From: a virus
Lineage: Duplodnaviria > Heunggongvirae > Uroviricota > Caudoviricetes
DNA length: 25,652 bases
Reading direction: 5' to 3' (one strand)
IMG/VR virus record: IMGVR_UViG_2531839479_000006
Shown one piece after another: positions 7,138 to 17,867 of the stretch. The position numbers and the translations under genes were made by a program. Each line of letters starts with the position of its first letter. Position 1 is the stretch's first letter. The notes under the pieces are model-generated. The model was not told the origin of the DNA. It saw nothing but the letters and a program-made list of their open reading frames with translations, and made no database searches.

Positions 7138-7368
7138 ATGAAAAAATCAGAAGTATTAGGCTATTTTGGCGGAGTTGTTAAAACAGCCGCAGCTCTAGGA
7201 ACGTCAAAAACCACAGTCAGCATGTGGGGGGAAGAGGTTCCGTGGAAATGGGCGTTGCTAATTCAGGCAGTCACTGCCGGGGCGCTCAAATATGAGTTAC
7301 ACATACCGACGGTTGTCATTCCCGGTTCTGATCATAATCCGCCTTCTAACCAAGGGGGGGATTCATGA
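7138..7368 (+). CDS. Cro-like HTH regulator (YdaS-like)
   Basis: Small ORF divergent from the repressor. Start chosen at MKKSEVLG, which has GGAG 7 nt upstream. HTH-like segment VVKTAAALGTSKTTVSMW. Confidence 0.65.
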   Translation: MKKSEVLGYFGGVVKTAAALGTSKTTVSMWGEEVPWKWALLIQAVTAGALKYELHIPTVVIPGSDHNPPSNQGGDS

Positions 7369-7790
7369 AAATCAAGCATGAACACATCCGCATGGCGATG
7401 AATGCCTGGGCGCATCCGGACGGCGAAAAAGTACCGGCTGCGAAAATTACCAAAGCGTATTTCGAGCTGGGAATGACGTTCCCGGAACTGTATGACGACA
7501 GCCATCCGGAAGCCCTGGCTCGCAATACCCAGAAAATTTTCCGCTGGGTAGAGAAAGACACCCCTGATGCAGTTGAAAAAATTCAGGCGTTGTTACCAGC
7601 GATCGAAAAGGCAATGCCACCTTTGCTGGTGGCCAGAATGCGCAGCCACAGTTCAGCTTATTTTCGGGAGCTGGTGGAGACGCGGGAGCGACTGGTGAGA
7701 GACGCTGATGATTTTGTCGCAGTGGCAATCGCCGGTTTCAATCAGATGAACCGTGGTGGCCCGGCAGGAAATGCTGTGGCAGTACATTGA
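7365..7790 (+). CDS. CII-position protein, 141 aa (YdaT-like)
   Basis: Start overlaps the cro-like stop (ATGA). It sits where lambdoid phages have cII; resemblance to YdaT is by size and N-terminal MKIKHEHI only. Confidence 0.55.
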   Translation: MKIKHEHIRMAMNAWAHPDGEKVPAAKITKAYFELGMTFPELYDDSHPEALARNTQKIFRWVEKDTPDAVEKIQALLPAIEKAMPPLLVARMRSHSSAYFRELVETRERLVRDADDFVAVAIAGFNQMNRGGPAGNAVAVH

Positions 7791-9395: not shown

Positions 9396-9688
9396 GGGTG
9401 AGGGTTTATATCGCCGGTCCAATGACGGGGTATGAAAATTTCAACCGTGAGGCGTTTCACAAGGCAGAAGAGGAACTGAAACGGGAAGGGCATACCGTCT
9501 TAAACCCGGCAGTACTTCCGGACGGGCTGACACAGCCGCACTACATGGATATTTGCATGGCAATGATTCGTTGTGTGGATGCGATTTACATGCTGAAAGG
9601 CTGGCAGCGGTCAGCAGGCGCTAAGGCAGAACTGGCGCTGGCGGAGAAACTGGGGCATGCAGTTATTTTCCAGGAGGAGGTACAGTGA
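9392..9688 (+). CDS. DUF4406-like protein (nucleoside 2-deoxyribosyltransferase-like fold)
   Basis: N-terminal VYIAGPMTG...NF pattern typical of that phage family (from memory). Start overlaps the upstream stop. Confidence 0.5.
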   Translation: MRVRVYIAGPMTGYENFNREAFHKAEEELKREGHTVLNPAVLPDGLTQPHYMDICMAMIRCVDAIYMLKGWQRSAGAKAELALAEKLGHAVIFQEEVQ

Positions 9689-9960
9689 ATATCGACGCAA
9701 CAATGACGATTGGTACGGCCCTCAATACGGGGCTGGCGCTTCTTGGTTGGTGCTACATCATGTTCTGCTCATGGCGGTGGCTGTCACTGATGTTACTGAA
9801 AGAATGGAATAAACGCTGTAAACAGACGCAGCGGCAGAAGGCAATGAATGCGTTTTTTGAGACCTTCGATATTGACAGTATAGAACCAGGAGAGCCAGCT
9901 CGCGTGATTAGCAGAGGTGACGTTGTAATTCTTGTATACCGGAGTGAAGAGAAAGCATAA
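9685..9960 (+). CDS. Hypothetical small membrane protein, 91 aa
   Basis: ORF overlapping the upstream stop, with a hydrophobic segment LALLGWCYIMFCSW. Last gene before the composition drops. Confidence 0.4.
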   Translation: MNIDATMTIGTALNTGLALLGWCYIMFCSWRWLSLMLLKEWNKRCKQTQRQKAMNAFFETFDIDSIEPGEPARVISRGDVVILVYRSEEKA

Positions 9961-10074
9961 TCCAAATCTGAATAATTAAATCCAGCACTGTAAATAAAAT
10001 TTAATCCTTAACCGGAGGGATTTCTGCACCCTCAGAACATCAGGAGGCCGCCCGAAAGGGCGGTGGAGATAATA

Positions 10075-10590
10075 ATGGAAATAACTAAAGAACGATTATT
10101 GGAAATAGCAAATCTTAGTGAAAGGGCATTAAGTGATGGGAGGATTATTTCTCCTGATGCTTATGAATCAGTTACAAGTATAGAAATAATAACGATGGCC
10201 AGGATGCTTCTTGCTCGCTTCAAAAAAGAATATAAAAAACAGGTAGATAGCAATGCTAATATATATGATATTTTGGACTGTTGGGGAGCTTGGGCTGTAG
10301 CTGGAAATAGTTCTATCAACTGGCAGCAAGTGGCTGATAAATATAAAGATGTTGTGCCTCATGGTAAAAAATTGCGTCGCCAGAGCAGCGATGATGAAGG
10401 GCGAGTGATTGATGAGTGGATATTGAGACTCAGACAATATAAAATAGATGAATATGAGTTAATTGTTGCCCACTTTGTAATAGGCGTTTCTTTGAGAAAG
10501 ATCGCAAAAAGAAAGAAATGTGCGGATGGGACTATTAGAAAAAAAATACAAGCAGCGATGGGAGTATTGGAGGGAGTATTAATGCTCTAA
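10075..10590 (+). CDS. Q-like regulator (antiterminator-Q family fold, C-terminal sigma-70 region-4-like HTH), AT-rich
   Basis: ATG with GGAG 6 nt upstream. Shares a W-G-x-W motif and a C-terminal basic HTH (SLRKIAKRKK...TIRKKI) with the prophage Q at 15304-15858 (WGRW ... MSKRKMAELL ... RNRI). Composition matches the AT-rich insertion. Confidence 0.55.
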   Translation: MEITKERLLEIANLSERALSDGRIISPDAYESVTSIEIITMARMLLARFKKEYKKQVDSNANIYDILDCWGAWAVAGNSSINWQQVADKYKDVVPHGKKLRRQSSDDEGRVIDEWILRLRQYKIDEYELIVAHFVIGVSLRKIAKRKKCADGTIRKKIQAAMGVLEGVLML

Positions 10591-10599
10591 CTGTTAGAG

Positions 10600-11820
10600 C
10601 TAAATAAAAATCTTCGCAAGAAATATTCCTGCTGCAATAGAACTTGGTAGCCAAGCCAAATACATAAATAACTTTATTGTATTATCACATTTGGTTTGGC
10701 TCTTTGATAGTTCATATAGAGCCTCATTAATGTCCTTCTTAAGGTCTTCTGGATAATTTTCATTGTTTTTTAGAAAAGGCATAAATGCTATATCTTTAGC
10801 ATGGTAAATATGTTTTAATTGTTTATCCTGATTGAGTAATACCATATATAAAATAAGTGAGCTTAACAATACACCTAATAAAACGAGTAACATTTCAGAT
10901 CTTGATGTTAGTTTTATAATCCCGAAGGATGCCAGTAAAGACACAGGGATTGATAATACTTTTGTCGTCAAATCAGTAATAAGTTTTGAGATTTTTTCAG
11001 CAAACTCTGCTTCAGACTTCGCAATTTCTTTTCGTGCCTTATGGAATGAAAAACCACTCATATACGTGGATAAATTATTTTCAAATAGCTTTACAAATTT
11101 ATCCCAATGGCAAATTAGGTTTTCAAAATCATATTTGTTATCGAGAATAAACTCCACTATGGTATTCCTGAAAATACCTGTTTTTTCTGCTTGATGGGGG
11201 ATTTGGGCGTTTTTTACATCTAAAAGACTCTTGATGATAGCATCATCAATGTCATTTATATTGAGCATCTTAGGTGTAATGCACGTTTCTAAAATAATAG
11301 ATGTTGATTTTGCGTCAGAATCTTTCACGAAAACTAAACGATAATTTGAAGATTCCGATTTTGTATCGTGAAAGTGCGCAATCTCAGCCAGGGAAGAAAT
11401 AATTGCACAAATTTTCTCGATTTTTATAATTTCGTCCGGTTTACTTGAATCAGACGGATGAAAATCCTCATCGATTATGTAATACTCTTTAGGAATTACA
11501 CCTTTCTTGAGTGAGTTTATACAAAGGAACTCTTGAATTGAGTTATAGAAACGTTCTGCTCCATTTTTAGGGGATATGTAAGTGTATGAGAATTTATCTC
11601 CAATTTTAATTGGGTGTGATTTTAAATCGTCTTCGTCAATGAACTCATTATTAATATCAACATCTTCAAAATAACCGTAGGCTTTATGTGAATTTACTAA
11701 CAAGTTTACCAAACGTTGATTGTTATTATTTATTTCAACAGTTGCAGAAAAAGAACGTCCGTCGAATTGGGGCTTCGATGATGCTCTATAAAAATCTACA
11801 ACCGTTGATAAATTAGCCAT
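10600..11820 (-). CDS. Membrane-anchored protein, ~406 aa: soluble N-terminal domain plus 2-3 C-terminal TM helices; candidate effector
   Basis: Long AT-rich ORF. C-terminal hydrophobic helices EMLLVLLGVLLSSLILYMVLL and LFMYLAWLPSSIAAGIFLAKIFI. Its ATG lies inside the last codons of the upstream gene (ATGGCTAA), indicating translational coupling. Confidence 0.8.
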   Translation of the reverse strand: MANLSTVVDFYRASSKPQFDGRSFSATVEINNNNQRLVNLLVNSHKAYGYFEDVDINNEFIDEDDLKSHPIKIGDKFSYTYISPKNGAERFYNSIQEFLCINSLKKGVIPKEYYIIDEDFHPSDSSKPDEIIKIEKICAIISSLAEIAHFHDTKSESSNYRLVFVKDSDAKSTSIILETCITPKMLNINDIDDAIIKSLLDVKNAQIPHQAEKTGIFRNTIVEFILDNKYDFENLICHWDKFVKLFENNLSTYMSGFSFHKARKEIAKSEAEFAEKISKLITDLTTKVLSIPVSLLASFGIIKLTSRSEMLLVLLGVLLSSLILYMVLLNQDKQLKHIYHAKDIAFMPFLKNNENYPEDLKKDINEALYELSKSQTKCDNTIKLFMYLAWLPSSIAAGIFLAKIFI

Positions 11821-12955
11821 TTTCTTTTCCACTATCCCTTATTTTTAAATTTTCTTTTACCACAGCGCTTAGTTTAGCCTTAAATTCAGCTGGTAAGTTT
11901 GTAAATGATAATCTTCCAGTTGTTTCATCGTACCACACATCATCATCAGCTGTCACTCCAAGGAGAGACTTGTCAAAATTAAATCCAATCTCATCAGTCT
12001 TAAAGGTGATGTTTTTAATGTCTTTCAACGCCCGTTTACTGATAACAAATTCAGTTGGGATTCTCACATTTTCACTATTTAAAAAAAGAATTAATTCGTG
12101 AGTGTAAGATTCTTTGGTAGACTCATCTAAATTTGTCATGTGACGTGCTGCAATTACTTCAATATCACTCAATCGGGCTGATAAATTTTTAGCTGCTTGT
12201 GTGTCTAAATATGCAATAACGTCATGTTTAAATCTATTGGCACATGCTTTAAGTTCTGGTTTTTGGTTAAAAAATTGTTTTGCGACAGTTGGTAGTTTTT
12301 TTGTGGCTTTTGCTGCTGCAAGTGATTTGTCGCATCCTATTGCTGCAATAAAATATGCTGATGTGGATTGACCCACTCCTTTACTTACGAAACTTAGATA
12401 ACTTAAGTCAATTTTTTCAGACTCATCAGCAGTTTTATATTGTTGGTAGAGATTGAAATTTATTCTTGCTGCTTGGTGTATTTTGGATAGATCCAAATGG
12501 ATCATTTCTTCAGGTTCGAGTTTGTTGCTGATAGTAACACCATTTTTCTTTTTAATCATTGCAATTAAAAAGAATTTATTGTTATTTACAATATAGTCAC
12601 AAAACACAATAAAACCACCAGATGACCAAGGTTCTTCTTTGGCTTTTTTTACAAGTTGCTTCATCACTTCAATAGAAAAAGGCACAAACTTTTCATTAAT
12701 GTTATCCTCTGACTGAGAATACTCTTCAAATATTGATGGCACAGGCCCTTGTTCTGTTTTCTCCTCTTTAAAAACGCCATAATGTGCAGAATTGCCTTTG
12801 GTTCCATATAAAGATGAAATGTCTTGAATAAGTTTTATAACAATTGGATTGGTTTTATCGAGAGGAGTGGATCTAAGCTGATACGGCTTAGAAAAATCAA
12901 AATCCTTTTTTGCTTCTTTAATTAGTTCATGAACGATAACTTGCTTAATTTCCAT
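11813..12955 (-). CDS. NdpA/YejK-family (nucleoid-associated protein, 37-kDa family) homologue, diverged, 380 aa
   Basis: Blocks match E. coli YejK as I recall it: IVHELIK vs ALHQLIK, SGGFIVFCDY vs DGGFVLFCHY, YLSFVSKGVGQ vs YLTFLKGRVGR, and the C-terminal GFNFD...LLG...D.TTGRLSF vs [30 protein letters not shown] upstream. Confidence 0.8.
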   Translation of the reverse strand: MEIKQVIVHELIKEAKKDFDFSKPYQLRSTPLDKTNPIVIKLIQDISSLYGTKGNSAHYGVFKEEKTEQGPVPSIFEEYSQSEDNINEKFVPFSIEVMKQLVKKAKEEPWSSGGFIVFCDYIVNNNKFFLIAMIKKKNGVTISNKLEPEEMIHLDLSKIHQAARINFNLYQQYKTADESEKIDLSYLSFVSKGVGQSTSAYFIAAIGCDKSLAAAKATKKLPTVAKQFFNQKPELKACANRFKHDVIAYLDTQAAKNLSARLSDIEVIAARHMTNLDESTKESYTHELILFLNSENVRIPTEFVISKRALKDIKNITFKTDEIGFNFDKSLLGVTADDDVWYDETTGRLSFTNLPAEFKAKLSAVVKENLKIRDSGKENG

Positions 12956-13045
12956 ATTGAAAATATCACCTATGTTATTGTTAGATCGTTTGTGATTTTT
13001 TTACCATCACAACAACGACACAAAATCATTAATGCGTACGCAAAA

Positions 13046-13074
13046 ATTTTGAATAATGAGTTAATCAATGTCAA
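13046..13074 (-). promoter_or_regulatory. Candidate promoter for the NdpA-like/membrane-protein operon
   Basis: Minus-strand TTGACA (13069-13074), a 17-bp spacer, then CAAAAT (13046-13051), about 90 nt upstream of the NdpA-like ATG. Pattern match only. Confidence 0.3.
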
Positions 13075-13230
13075 TAGTTAAACACACTACCGCTGTAGAG
13101 TTGTTGTCATTAAATTGCGTCATAAGTAGAATTGCTGCGGGTGCTTGAGGCTATCTGTCTCAGGCATGAACACCAAAAGGCAGATAGAGAAAAGCCCCAC
13201 CCGACTATAAATCGAAGTGAGGCCAGTCTT

Positions 13231-13437
13231 ATGTCTCGACAACTGAAGATTAGCCTCTTACGTGCCGAAAGGCAAGGAGAAGCAGGCTATGAAGCAGCAA
13301 AAGGCGATGTTAATCGCCCTGATCGTCATCTGTTTAACCGTCATAGTGACGGCACTGATAACGAGGAAAGACCTCTGCGAGGTACGAATCCGAACCGGCC
13401 AGACGGAGGTCGCTGTCTTCACAGCTTACGAACCTGA
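13231..13437 (+). CDS. mok: Mok-like overlapping reading frame of the hok locus
   Basis: ORF starting MSRQLK with GAAGTGAGG upstream, overlapping hok in another frame as in hok/sok loci. Confidence 0.45.
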   Translation: MSRQLKISLLRAERQGEAGYEAAKGDVNRPDRHLFNRHSDGTDNEERPLRGTNPNRPDGGRCLHSLRT

Positions 13438-13444
13438 GGAGTAA
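13289..13444 (+). CDS. hok: Hok/Gef-family type I toxin, 51 aa
   Basis: MKQQKAMLIALIVICLTVIVTALITRKDLCEVRIRTGQTEVAVFTAYEPEE is near-identical to the Hok/HokD family sequence as I recall it. AGGAGA 8 nt upstream. Confidence 0.85.
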   Translation: MKQQKAMLIALIVICLTVIVTALITRKDLCEVRIRTGQTEVAVFTAYEPEE

Positions 13445-13513
13445 GAGACCAGGTGAGGGAGAAATCCCTCGCCACCTCTGATGAGTCAGGCATCCTCAAC
13501 GCACCCGCACTTA

Positions 13514-14941: not shown

Positions 14942-15307
14942 ATGACTGAACGCATAGAATTTGTTTTGCCTTACCCGCCAACGGTGAACACTTACTGGCG
15001 ACGTCGTGGCAGCACATATTTTGTATCAAAAGCCGGTGAGCGTTATCGCCGTGATGTGGCGCTTATTGTTCGCCAGCAGCGGCTGAAATTAAACCTGTCC
15101 GGAAGGCTGGTGATAAAGATTATTGCAGAGCCACCGGATAAACGTCGTCGTGACCTGGACAATATCCTGAAAGCACCACTGGATGCGCTGACGCATGCCG
15201 GACTTCTCATAGACGACGAGCAGTTTGATGAAATCAATATTGTGCGCGGTCAGCGCGTTCCTGGGGGGCGGCTGGGCGTGAAGATTTACAAAATTGAGAG
15301 TGAGTGA
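14942..15307 (+). CDS. rusA: Holliday junction resolvase RusA
   Basis: 120-aa ORF with the RusA signature RRRDLDNILKAPLDALTHAGLLIDDEQ, in the nin-region position. Confidence 0.85.
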   Translation: MTERIEFVLPYPPTVNTYWRRRGSTYFVSKAGERYRRDVALIVRQQRLKLNLSGRLVIKIIAEPPDKRRRDLDNILKAPLDALTHAGLLIDDEQFDEINIVRGQRVPGGRLGVKIYKIESE

Positions 15308-15858
15308 TCGTAAATATGATATACCCGGAAATTACAGGCAAAAGCGGCGAGCATTTACGTCTAAAAACGCTGGAAGCCGTCTGGATCCAGGGGAAATTAC
15401 GGATGTGGGGGCGTTGGTCGTATATAGGTGGTGGCAAACCAGGAAATATGTTCAATCAGTTGCTGGCATCCAAAAAACTGACAAAAACCGCAATCAATGA
15501 AGCCCTGCGTAGAATCAGGGAGTCAGGGATTGATAAACCAGAGCTGGAAGCATTCTTGCGAGAGATGATCGCTGGCAGACAGAAGAGCTGGTTGTCTCAC
15601 TGTACTGATGCAGAGGCGTTACGCATTGATGGGGTGATAAGTAAAGCGCTTGCACGTTATCCTGGATTGATTGATATCCTGCGGCAAAGGTACGAAGGGC
15701 GGGGGATGAGTAAACGCAAAATGGCTGAATTGTTGAATGAGGTTCACCCTGAGTGGTGCTATGCAACATGCCGCAATCGTATAGATATGTGGCTGAGAAT
15801 AGCTGAGTTTATTCTGTATCCACTGATGCGAGATGCATTTTCTTTTACTGACGCTTAG
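15304..15858 (+). CDS. Late gene antiterminator Q
   Basis: Overlaps the rusA stop. Followed by a roughly 190-bp leader and a strong intrinsic terminator, as for lambda PR'/qut/tR'. Contains a WGRW motif and a C-terminal HTH. Confidence 0.65.
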   Translation: MIVNMIYPEITGKSGEHLRLKTLEAVWIQGKLRMWGRWSYIGGGKPGNMFNQLLASKKLTKTAINEALRRIRESGIDKPELEAFLREMIAGRQKSWLSHCTDAEALRIDGVISKALARYPGLIDILRQRYEGRGMSKRKMAELLNEVHPEWCYATCRNRIDMWLRIAEFILYPLMRDAFSFTDA

Positions 15859-17617: not shown

Positions 17618-17693
17618 GGCCCTTTAGCTCAGTGGTGAGAGCGAGCGACTCATAATCGCCAGGTCGCTGGTTCAAATCCAGCAAGGGCCACCA
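17618..17693 (+). tRNA. tRNA with CAU anticodon, Ile2-like (lysidine type)
   Basis: Cloverleaf folded by hand: acceptor GGCCCTT/AAGGGCC, D-arm GCTC/GAGC, anticodon loop CTCATAA, T-loop TTCAAAT, CCA encoded. Close to E. coli ileX as I recall it. Confidence 0.85.
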
Positions 17694-17700
17694 TCACATA

Positions 17701-17777
17701 CCGCCATTAGCTCATCAGGATAGAGCGCCAGCCTTCGAAGCTGGTTGCGCGGGGTTCGAGTCCTCGATGGCGGTCCA
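17701..17777 (+). tRNA. tRNA-Arg (anticodon UCG)
   Basis: Acceptor CCGCCAT/ATGGCGG (C1-G72), D-arm GCTC/GAGC, anticodon stem CCAGC/GCTGG with loop CTTCGAA, T-loop TTCGAGT, CCA encoded. Confidence 0.75.
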
Positions 17778-17790
17778 TTATCTGTACCCT

Positions 17791-17867
17791 GCGTTGTTAG
17801 CTCAGCCGGACAGAGCAATTGCCTTCTAAGCAATCGGTCACTGGTTCGAATCCAGTACAACGCGCCA
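17791..17867 (+). tRNA. tRNA-Arg (anticodon UCU)
   Basis: Acceptor GCGTTGT/ACAACGC, anticodon stem ATTGC/GCAAT with loop CTTCTAA, T-loop TTCGAAT, CCA encoded. Confidence 0.85.

Follow-up and report, generated by a model that had tools for sequence, protein, structure and literature searches.

A YejK-like protein and its membrane partner in a lambdoid prophage: a probable abortive-infection cassette of the DS-1 / type II PANGU kind

Introduction

The yejK gene is a core gene of the chromosome, and the locus described here raises the question of why a highly diverged relative of its product should be carried by a prophage, in an operon with a gene for a membrane protein. The locus lies in IMG/VR record IMGVR_UViG_2531839479_000006, a stretch of Caudoviricetes DNA of 25,652 nucleotides (nt) that was analyzed as a whole and is called the window below. 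Two overlapping genes are concerned, one for a YejK-like (NdpA-like) protein of the NA37 family and one for a partner protein with a hydrophobic C-terminus. An earlier reading of the bare sequence, referred to here as the original prediction, had suggested that a nucleic-acid-binding fold was recruited as a sensor of invading DNA. The comparisons reported here point to a modified answer: the pair is probably an abortive-infection system related to DS-1 (proteins DS-1A and DS-1B) and to type II PANGU (proteins Pag2A and Pag2B), carried as cargo of a lambdoid prophage.

The features of the cassette, with positions in the window, are as follows.

11813..12955, minus strand: NA37/YejK-like gene, 380 amino acids (aa) from an ATG start (open reading frame (ORF) call); proposed sensor subunit, counterpart of Pag2A / DS-1A
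11813..11820, minus strand: gene overlap ATGGCTAA, 8 nt, holding the stop codon of the NA37 gene and the start codon of the partner gene, read directly
10600..11820, minus strand: partner gene, 406 aa from the ATG at 11820 (ORF call, same start in PGAP); proposed membrane effector, counterpart of Pag2B / DS-1B
10966..11820, minus strand: partner residues 1-285, soluble and acidic, alpha/beta plus helical; candidate DNA-mimicking (DMK-like) domain
10603..10965, minus strand: partner residues 286-406, with three hydrophobic helices that are conserved; presumed to anchor the protein in the membrane and to act as effector
13046..13074, minus strand: candidate sigma-70 promoter (TTGACA-17-CAAAAT, 10/12 matches), within the cargo segment and some 90 nt before the NA37 start codon
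~10570..13122: exchangeable cargo segment of about 2.55 kb, roughly 32-38% guanine plus cytosine (GC), comprising the two genes and their upstream region

The NA37 protein and its membrane partner

Profile, sequence and structure comparisons were used to determine the family of the 380-aa protein (RefSeq WP_001460784.1, named 'nucleoid-associated protein'). Pfam NA37 (PF04245) aligned to residues 7-358 over profile positions 1-324 of 325, with a score of 175.8 bits (E=2e-51) against a gathering cut-off of 24.6 bits. A phmmer search of all PDB chain sequences matched E. coli YejK (9be2) over residues 2-355 at E=3.2e-14. An AlphaFold2 model built from 49 homologues had a mean predicted local distance difference test score (pLDDT) of 84.5, and YejK 9be2 was its sole significant Foldseek match in the PDB (E=9.2e-17, probability 1.00; structure-aligned identity 19%, template modelling score 0.46-0.51). 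The profile alignment and the structure prediction that had been suggested as checks on the original prediction were thereby carried out, and they bear out a diverged YejK/NdpA homologue at 11813-12955 with significant similarity to the NdpA family. Judged by these matches, the protein is a member of the NA37 superfamily. The extent of its divergence is apparent from the NCBIfam YejK equivalog model NF001557, to which it scored 139.4 bits. Because this falls short of the 341-bit cut-off, the protein is assigned to a paralogous or xenologous branch distinct from the housekeeping YejK orthologue.

The sequence blocks picked out in the original prediction, IVHELIK (residues 7-13), SGGFIVFCDY (112-121), YLSFVSKGVG (186-195) and, near the C-terminus, GFNFD (324-328) and TGRLSF (346-351), fall on invariant or nearly invariant columns of the 49-sequence family alignment. 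The phmmer alignment sets ALHQLIK, DGGFVLFCHY, YLTFLKGRVG and INFD of YejK against these blocks. Basic residues K13, R28, K135, R164 and K181 are invariant across the family. The AT-richness noted earlier was also found, with GC contents of 0.33 for the NA37 gene and 0.32 for the partner gene, against 0.52-0.53 for genes to the right (hokD, DUF968).

The partner protein is entered in RefSeq as WP_001460783.1, 'hypothetical protein'; translation from an upstream GTG at 11832 would extend it to 410 aa. No family was matched in a Pfam scan and no PDB chain was matched by its sequence. Its AlphaFold2 model (pLDDT 87) consists of an alpha/beta N-terminal domain followed by long helices. Residues 1-285 have an isoelectric point (pI) of 5.34 and contain the conserved motifs AHFHD and SGFSFHKARKE. 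Acidity is a property of the family: the N-domain is acidic in 43/43 homologues (pI 4.64-5.65, net charge -7 to -18), and among the best 150 matches of an exhaustive profile search the N-terminal pI lies below 6 in 97% of the 132 full-length partners. The domain is a candidate for a DNA mimic that would bind the NA37 protein, by analogy with the DMK domain of Pag2B. Hydrophobic helices were located at approximately residues 283-303, 305-332 and 381-406 from Kyte-Doolittle hydropathy and the AlphaFold2 model, with a helical linker of about 50 residues between them. These segments are also present in the family-average hydropathy, and a hydrophobic segment begins near residue 282 in all 132 full-length partners of that set. 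The partner family as a whole is large, the profile search yielding 1,099 cluster representatives at E<=1e-3.

The predicted operon with a membrane protein is apparent from the 8-nt overlap with this downstream gene and the three hydrophobic segments near the C-terminus of its product. The overlap implies that the two genes are co-transcribed and makes translational coupling probable. An independent transcription of the cassette, antisense to the phage genes, is proposed. The promoter-like site at 13046-13074 is regarded only as a candidate because the number of such sites in the region (11, by consensus scan) did not exceed that in shuffled sequences (10.7).

Homology of both proteins to the DS-1 pair

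DS-1 (working id D390) was described in the DefensePredictor study (Science 2026, PMC13092281) as WP_000355468.1 (391 aa) followed by WP_000150292.1 (404 aa). After cloning in MG1655 it was included in the set of validated systems, and the study names the YejK domain as one newly validated in defence (PMC13092281). Neither window accession (WP_001460784, WP_001460783) was met with in the tables of that study, but since the large ones were covered only in truncated form this is no sign that they are missing. In Table S7 of that study the -log of the efficiency of plating is given as 7.6 for Bas1, 2.7 for Bas26, 1.7 for Bas3 and T3 and approximately 1 for T5 and T7, with no effect for SECphi27 (PMC13092281).

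Both proteins of the window gave highly significant matches, though below the cut-offs, to the NCBIfam models for this system. The NA37 protein matched DS1_1_antiphage (NF053868, 'nucleoid-associated anti-phage protein') at E=6e-29, and the partner matched DS1_2_antiphage (NF053869) at E=4e-30. Profile-profile comparison by hhalign gave 97.5% probability over 288 columns for the NA37 protein against DS-1A and 98% over 303 columns for the partner family against DS-1B. From these alignments both window proteins are identified as distant homologues of the DS-1 pair, gene for gene. The concept of such systems is already in print (DS-1 and type II PANGU, 2025-2026) and NCBIfam already holds the DS1_1 and DS1_2 models; the inference made earlier from the raw sequence was a good one and would have been novel only before 2025.

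Strict pairing and mobility

To learn whether the two genes belong together elsewhere, loci were retrieved with the partner family, taking one genome per species, which returned 21 loci from Enterobacterales, Pseudomonas and Vibrio. An NA37 gene lies directly upstream and on the same strand in 21/21 of them, and the reverse look-up from NA37 homologues in Yersinia, Klebsiella and Arsukibacterium recovered the same pair. The identities of the two proteins to their counterparts in the window co-vary (Pearson r=0.92, n=22), and the GC content of the pair is lower than that of its flanks in 25/25 loci.

The surroundings differ between hosts. A Phage_antitermQ gene adjoins the pair tail-to-tail in 8/11 enteric loci, where the other neighbours are lambdoid genes as well (DUF968, RusA, lysozyme, holins, NinB/G). 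One isolated phage, P7641 of Klebsiella, carries the pair too. In Pseudomonas, Vibrio and others it occupies small islets of the chromosome with housekeeping genes around them, and in Arsukibacterium it stands between BrxR (WYL) and the methylase (HsdM) of a type I restriction-modification (R-M) system, with an integrase adjoining. Because it occurs in prophages, an isolated phage, islets and an R-M/BrxR island, the pair is a mobile two-gene module and not a structural or regulatory gene of the phage.

These data bear on an alternative in which the NA37 protein serves the phage by organizing or silencing its DNA, with the membrane protein as a separate lysogenic-conversion or superinfection-exclusion factor on a shared transcript. 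Such a role would agree with the stand-alone NA37 genes, annotated NdpA, of Pseudomonas F116-like and other phages, and with the frequent position of the pair next to the Q antiterminator of lambdoid prophages (8/11 enteric loci). However, the two genes were never found apart in the 21 loci, overlap by 8 nt and co-vary in identity, the pair also resides outside prophages, among housekeeping genes and in the R-M/BrxR island, and in relatives defence depends on the homologues of both genes together. An explanation by service to the phage is thus held to be quite improbable, and the reading as a defence module is retained below.

The phage NA37 genes themselves, with approximately 22-27% identity to the window protein, were seen in the Pseudomonas F116/H66/LKA5-like phages, PseuP_222 and PseuP_224, and further ones in Sinorhizobium phage phi2LM21 and in gut phage contigs; the annotated phage records are named nucleoid-associated protein or NdpA. 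They are one reason why the premise of the original prediction, a housekeeping YejK in single copy as the norm, is too narrow.

Decayed copies of the pair were encountered as well. In Shigella flexneri (locus L021) a second copy of the pair is broken up in both genes, as is the copy of the Pantoea symbiont of Euschistus (L029), and in Pseudomonas gorinensis (L027) an insertion of about 1.2 kb interrupts the NA37 gene. Such decay agrees with a loss of the pair where selection for it is absent. A full pair (40% and 31% identity to the window proteins) was located on a 330-kb contig of a metagenome-assembled genome (MAG) labelled Candidatus Moraniibacteriota (L019). A MAG of the candidate phyla radiation would be an unexpected host, and the pair either reached it by horizontal transfer or was placed there by an error of binning or by contamination.

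Proposed mode of action and its alternatives

PANGU systems were defined in a bioRxiv preprint of April 2026 (10.64898/2026.04.06.716658), on which all statements about them here are based. According to this work, 47% of 1.64 million YejK-like proteins are encoded in operons with other genes, a figure that makes the housekeeping premise mentioned above too narrow. Systems were selected there if known defence genes lay within 10 kb and the intergenic distance was below 40 bp. Type I consists of a YejK-like nucleoid-associated protein (NAP), Pag1A, and the toxSAS enzyme Pag1B. Type II consists of the NAP Pag2A and the transmembrane (TM) protein Pag2B with an N-terminal acidic 'DNA-mimicking' (DMK) domain. 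For PANGU^Ecu, a type II system of E. coli, both genes were required, neither was toxic alone and the outcome was abortive infection. A fusion of Pag2A to green fluorescent protein (GFP) was located on the nucleoid before T4 infection and was diffuse afterwards, and Pag2A bound the isolated DMK domain with a dissociation constant (KD) of 19 nM. In type I, the binding of Pag1A to the E. coli chromosome was not sequence-specific, a NAP deficient in DNA binding caused constitutive toxicity and T4 escapers were mutated in the host-DNA endonuclease EndoII. The authors propose that the NAP is freed when phage nucleases degrade the host chromosome and then binds the acidic effector domain (10.64898/2026.04.06.716658).

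By analogy, the cassette of the window may work as follows. In the lysogen, the YejK-like protein would be produced and, through non-specific binding to DNA, would remain attached to the host chromosome. An infecting phage that degrades or otherwise clears the host DNA would set it free, and the freed NA37 protein would bind the acidic soluble domain of its partner, which would compete with DNA for the same surface. Binding would activate the C-terminal membrane helices, presumably with permeabilization or depolarization of the membrane, and the infected cell would cease to support phage growth. The observations made here that enter into this scheme are the fold and family, the homology to DS-1A/B, the operon, the obligate pairing, the co-variation, the acidic-plus-TM architecture and the mobility. 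Anti-phage activity, the requirement for both genes, nucleoid release and NAP-DMK binding come from the literature on relatives; the window subfamily is expected to behave like these DS-1 / PANGU relatives, and its membrane part would accordingly be the effector.

The scheme departs in one respect from the original prediction. Its proposal of a YejK fold that acts as a defence sensor with a membrane partner stands, as both proteins are homologous to DS-1; its notion of a sensor of invading DNA is probably wrong, given that in the preprint the NAP is released from a degraded host chromosome. Direct recognition of incoming phage DNA by its structure, modification or free ends, with a signal passed to the membrane protein, would suit the DNA-binding type of the NA37 fold and the pairing with a membrane protein as in a sensor-effector system, and the restriction of Bas1, T3 and T7 by DS-1 makes triggers other than bulk degradation of host DNA conceivable. 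Nevertheless, Pag1A is non-specific on the chromosome, and the sequence gives no hint of discrimination between self and foreign DNA. The constitutive toxicity of the DNA-binding-deficient mutant, the EndoII escape mutations of T4 and the departure of Pag2A-GFP from the nucleoid on infection (10.64898/2026.04.06.716658) therefore indicate that the signal is loss and not gain of DNA binding. Sensing of the incoming DNA itself is consequently regarded as unlikely, and release from the host nucleoid is preferred.

Several points weigh against the assignment as a DS-1 / type II PANGU-like system. Both proteins score well below the DS-1 equivalog cut-offs (101.2 against 330 bits for the NA37 protein and 105 against 315 bits for the partner), and identities are low, with 22% between the NA37 protein and DS-1A (E=9e-9) and 27% over 162 aa between the partner and DS-1B (BLASTP E=2e-14). 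The NA37 protein lacks the zinc ribbon of DS-1A, its NA37 domain beginning at residue 7. DS-1 was validated against phages and the window pair is known here from its sequence alone; likewise, the pair was likened to type II PANGU by the published description and not by the sequences of PANGU^Ecu. A scan with PADLOC-DB 2023 recognized neither protein, because the DS-1 kind post-dates that library. R-M or WYL genes were found within 4.5 kb at only 1/12 non-enteric loci, that of Arsukibacterium, and at none of the other 11. Since Arsukibacterium alone was positive for known defence genes, guilt by association is not used as main evidence. The acidity of the partner is moderate (net charge -10 over 285 residues), and fold comparison of the partner gave no structural match in support of DNA mimicry or a pore. 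Finally, the nucleoid-release mechanism derives from a single preprint that has not been peer reviewed and from work mainly on type I, and its authors state that the activation route of Pag2B remains unknown (10.64898/2026.04.06.716658).

By the NCBI cut-offs the window pair is thus not a DS-1 equivalog. Because of these sub-cut-off scores and the 22-27% identity to DS-1, it is classed, as far as sequence comparison can tell, as a diverged and as yet unvalidated subfamily of the DS-1 / type II PANGU kind.

The same divergence leaves room for a further reading. With an identity of at most 27% to DS-1, no zinc ribbon and, in most enteric prophages, a tail-to-tail position with a Q-type antiterminator gene, the prophage-borne subfamily might be a functionally distinct branch of NAP-plus-membrane-effector systems, with its own trigger and a pore-forming effector, although this is considered rather doubtful. 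The trigger of such a branch could be superinfecting temperate phages or the stripping of the NAP from DNA without bulk degradation, and its effector could be a CorA- or ClyA-like helical pore assembled once the NAP has bound the acidic domain.

The prophage and its cargo slot

The phage-borne location of the gene, part of the original prediction, was confirmed in a bacterial chromosome. The window matches a prophage of E. coli 602354 adjoining potCD, and over the 3.5 kb around the cassette that served as query (window 10000-13500) the identity to the 602354 chromosome is 100%. The prophage is lambdoid, with genes for an integrase, an excisionase, an exonuclease, dicB, a repressor, a frameshifted cro, replication functions and hokD, and with further genes for DUF968, RusA, DUF1133, a DNA methylase, three tRNAs, lysis, a terminase and a portal. 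The following features of the window surround the cassette.

10063-10590, plus strand: ORF of 175 aa, 'antiterminator Q family protein', GC 0.37
13139-13444: hok/sok type I toxin-antitoxin module (Rfam sok at 13139-13294, 122 bits; hokD in RefSeq)
15304-15858: DUF1133 gene, further right in the same prophage
17618-17867: three tRNA genes, downstream of the phage DNA methyltransferase gene and upstream of the lysis genes

The cassette forms a low-GC island, with values of 0.32-0.35 over approximately 10000-13000 against approximately 0.5 on both sides. Homology to a prophage of E. coli E1433 runs through window 9501-10569 and resumes at 13123 with 94% identity. Because the homology of the flanks breaks at these points in related prophages, with other cargo between them, the cargo segment was delimited as approximately 10570-13122. 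It is transcribed antisense to the early and late genes of the phage and lies between the Q-family gene and hok/sok. The Q-family ORF ends 9 nt from the stop codon of the partner gene, so that the two genes are convergent. Among 5426 complete E. coli genomes, the cassette was found in four.

The same slot in E1433 is occupied by an antisense gene for a DUF6731 protein (304 aa) and a gene for a 159-aa protein (L032:2071-3778), and this cargo is shared by the further partial-match genomes that are listed under the same annotation. When the E1433 pair was considered as a known defence family, no confident match was obtained, the match to RexB (E=0.0015) being too weak. It could be another uncharacterized two-gene system.

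The setting also invites an explanation of the cassette as an addiction module that stabilizes the prophage, with a membrane toxin and an NA37 antitoxin but no role in defence. An overlapping two-gene operon with a membrane protein would agree with this, as would the adjoining hok/sok module and the pseudogenized copies in Shigella and the Pantoea symbiont. Yet the genes of PANGU^Ecu are each non-toxic alone, and its NAP activates the partner rather than neutralizing it (10.64898/2026.04.06.716658). Moreover, a protein of 380 aa with the conserved motifs of a DNA-binding family is unlike the typical small, labile antitoxin. Addiction without defence is accordingly judged very improbable, and abortive infection remains the favoured function.

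Some further observations concern the prophage itself. The Q-family ORF has a weak match to sigma-70/ECF-like (extracytoplasmic function-like) sequences (E=0.0034), and hok/sok starts 16 nt past the right-hand breakpoint of the cargo segment. The anticodons of the three tRNAs are CAT (tRNA-Ile in RefSeq, Met according to ARAGORN), TCG (Arg) and TCT (Arg). The late genes are intact; the prophage may be defective because its cro-like gene is annotated as frameshifted in RefSeq (L001:9139-9382, corresponding to window positions of about 7138-7381).

Significance and comparison with known systems

The window pair provides a well-delimited, naturally prophage-borne example of a defence class that is only months old, in which YejK-like nucleoid proteins serve as sentinels of chromosome integrity. 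The membrane-effector branch of this class is large and has a uniform partner architecture with strict NA37 pairing in every locus examined. Such pairs are undercounted in surveys of defence genes in E. coli, Klebsiella, Yersinia and Salmonella prophages, because their RefSeq names are 'nucleoid-associated protein' and 'hypothetical protein' and neither is recognized by PADLOC 2023. With its own upstream region, the compact 2.55-kb cassette offers a convenient handle on the activation of the membrane effector. If the reading as a distinct branch were true, study of the window pair could answer the question left open in the preprint of how the membrane effector is switched on.

Among known proteins, E. 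coli YejK/NdpA (9be2) has the fold and the conserved blocks throughout its length in common with the NA37 protein of the window. The latter is about 45 residues longer, which includes a C-terminal helix at residues 356-378 of the AlphaFold2 model, and unlike yejK its gene is accessory, low in GC, located on a prophage and always paired with a gene for a membrane protein.

RexAB, an abortive-infection system of two genes on the lambda prophage, is expressed in the lysogen and combines a cytoplasmic sensor with a membrane effector. The comparison applies to the way of working only, as the trigger and the folds differ from those of the window pair, and PADLOC gave no RexA or RexB match for either window protein.

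DS-1 shares with the window pair the two-gene operon with the NA37 gene first and a partner of about 400 aa second, the soluble N-terminal part and hydrophobic C-terminus of this partner, and the status of an accessory E. coli system. The two differ in that the NA37 domain of DS-1A (residues 42-382) follows an N-terminal zinc ribbon of about 40 residues (CxxC...CxxC, NinF-like match), and in that DS-1B falls outside the best 150 representatives of the window partner family, which it resembles with at most 29% identity.

Type I PANGU has a YejK-like NAP as sensor and the same proposed logic of release followed by binding. As effector it has a soluble alarmone synthetase / nucleotide pyrophosphokinase (GRel toxSAS) in place of a membrane protein (10.64898/2026.04.06.716658).

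In architecture the window pair resembles type II PANGU. Its bicistronic organization (criterion <40 bp) corresponds to the 8-nt overlap observed here, the C-terminal TM domain of its membrane protein to the three conserved hydrophobic helices of the partner, and its acidic N-terminal domain to partner residues 1-285 (pI 5.3, net charge -10). Type II systems likewise include one from E. coli and are mobile and spread across phyla. In contrast to them, the window pair is prophage cargo without linkage to known defence genes. In its predicted bicistronic layout, acidic N-domain and C-terminal TM helices, the cassette of the window fits the published architecture of type II PANGU.

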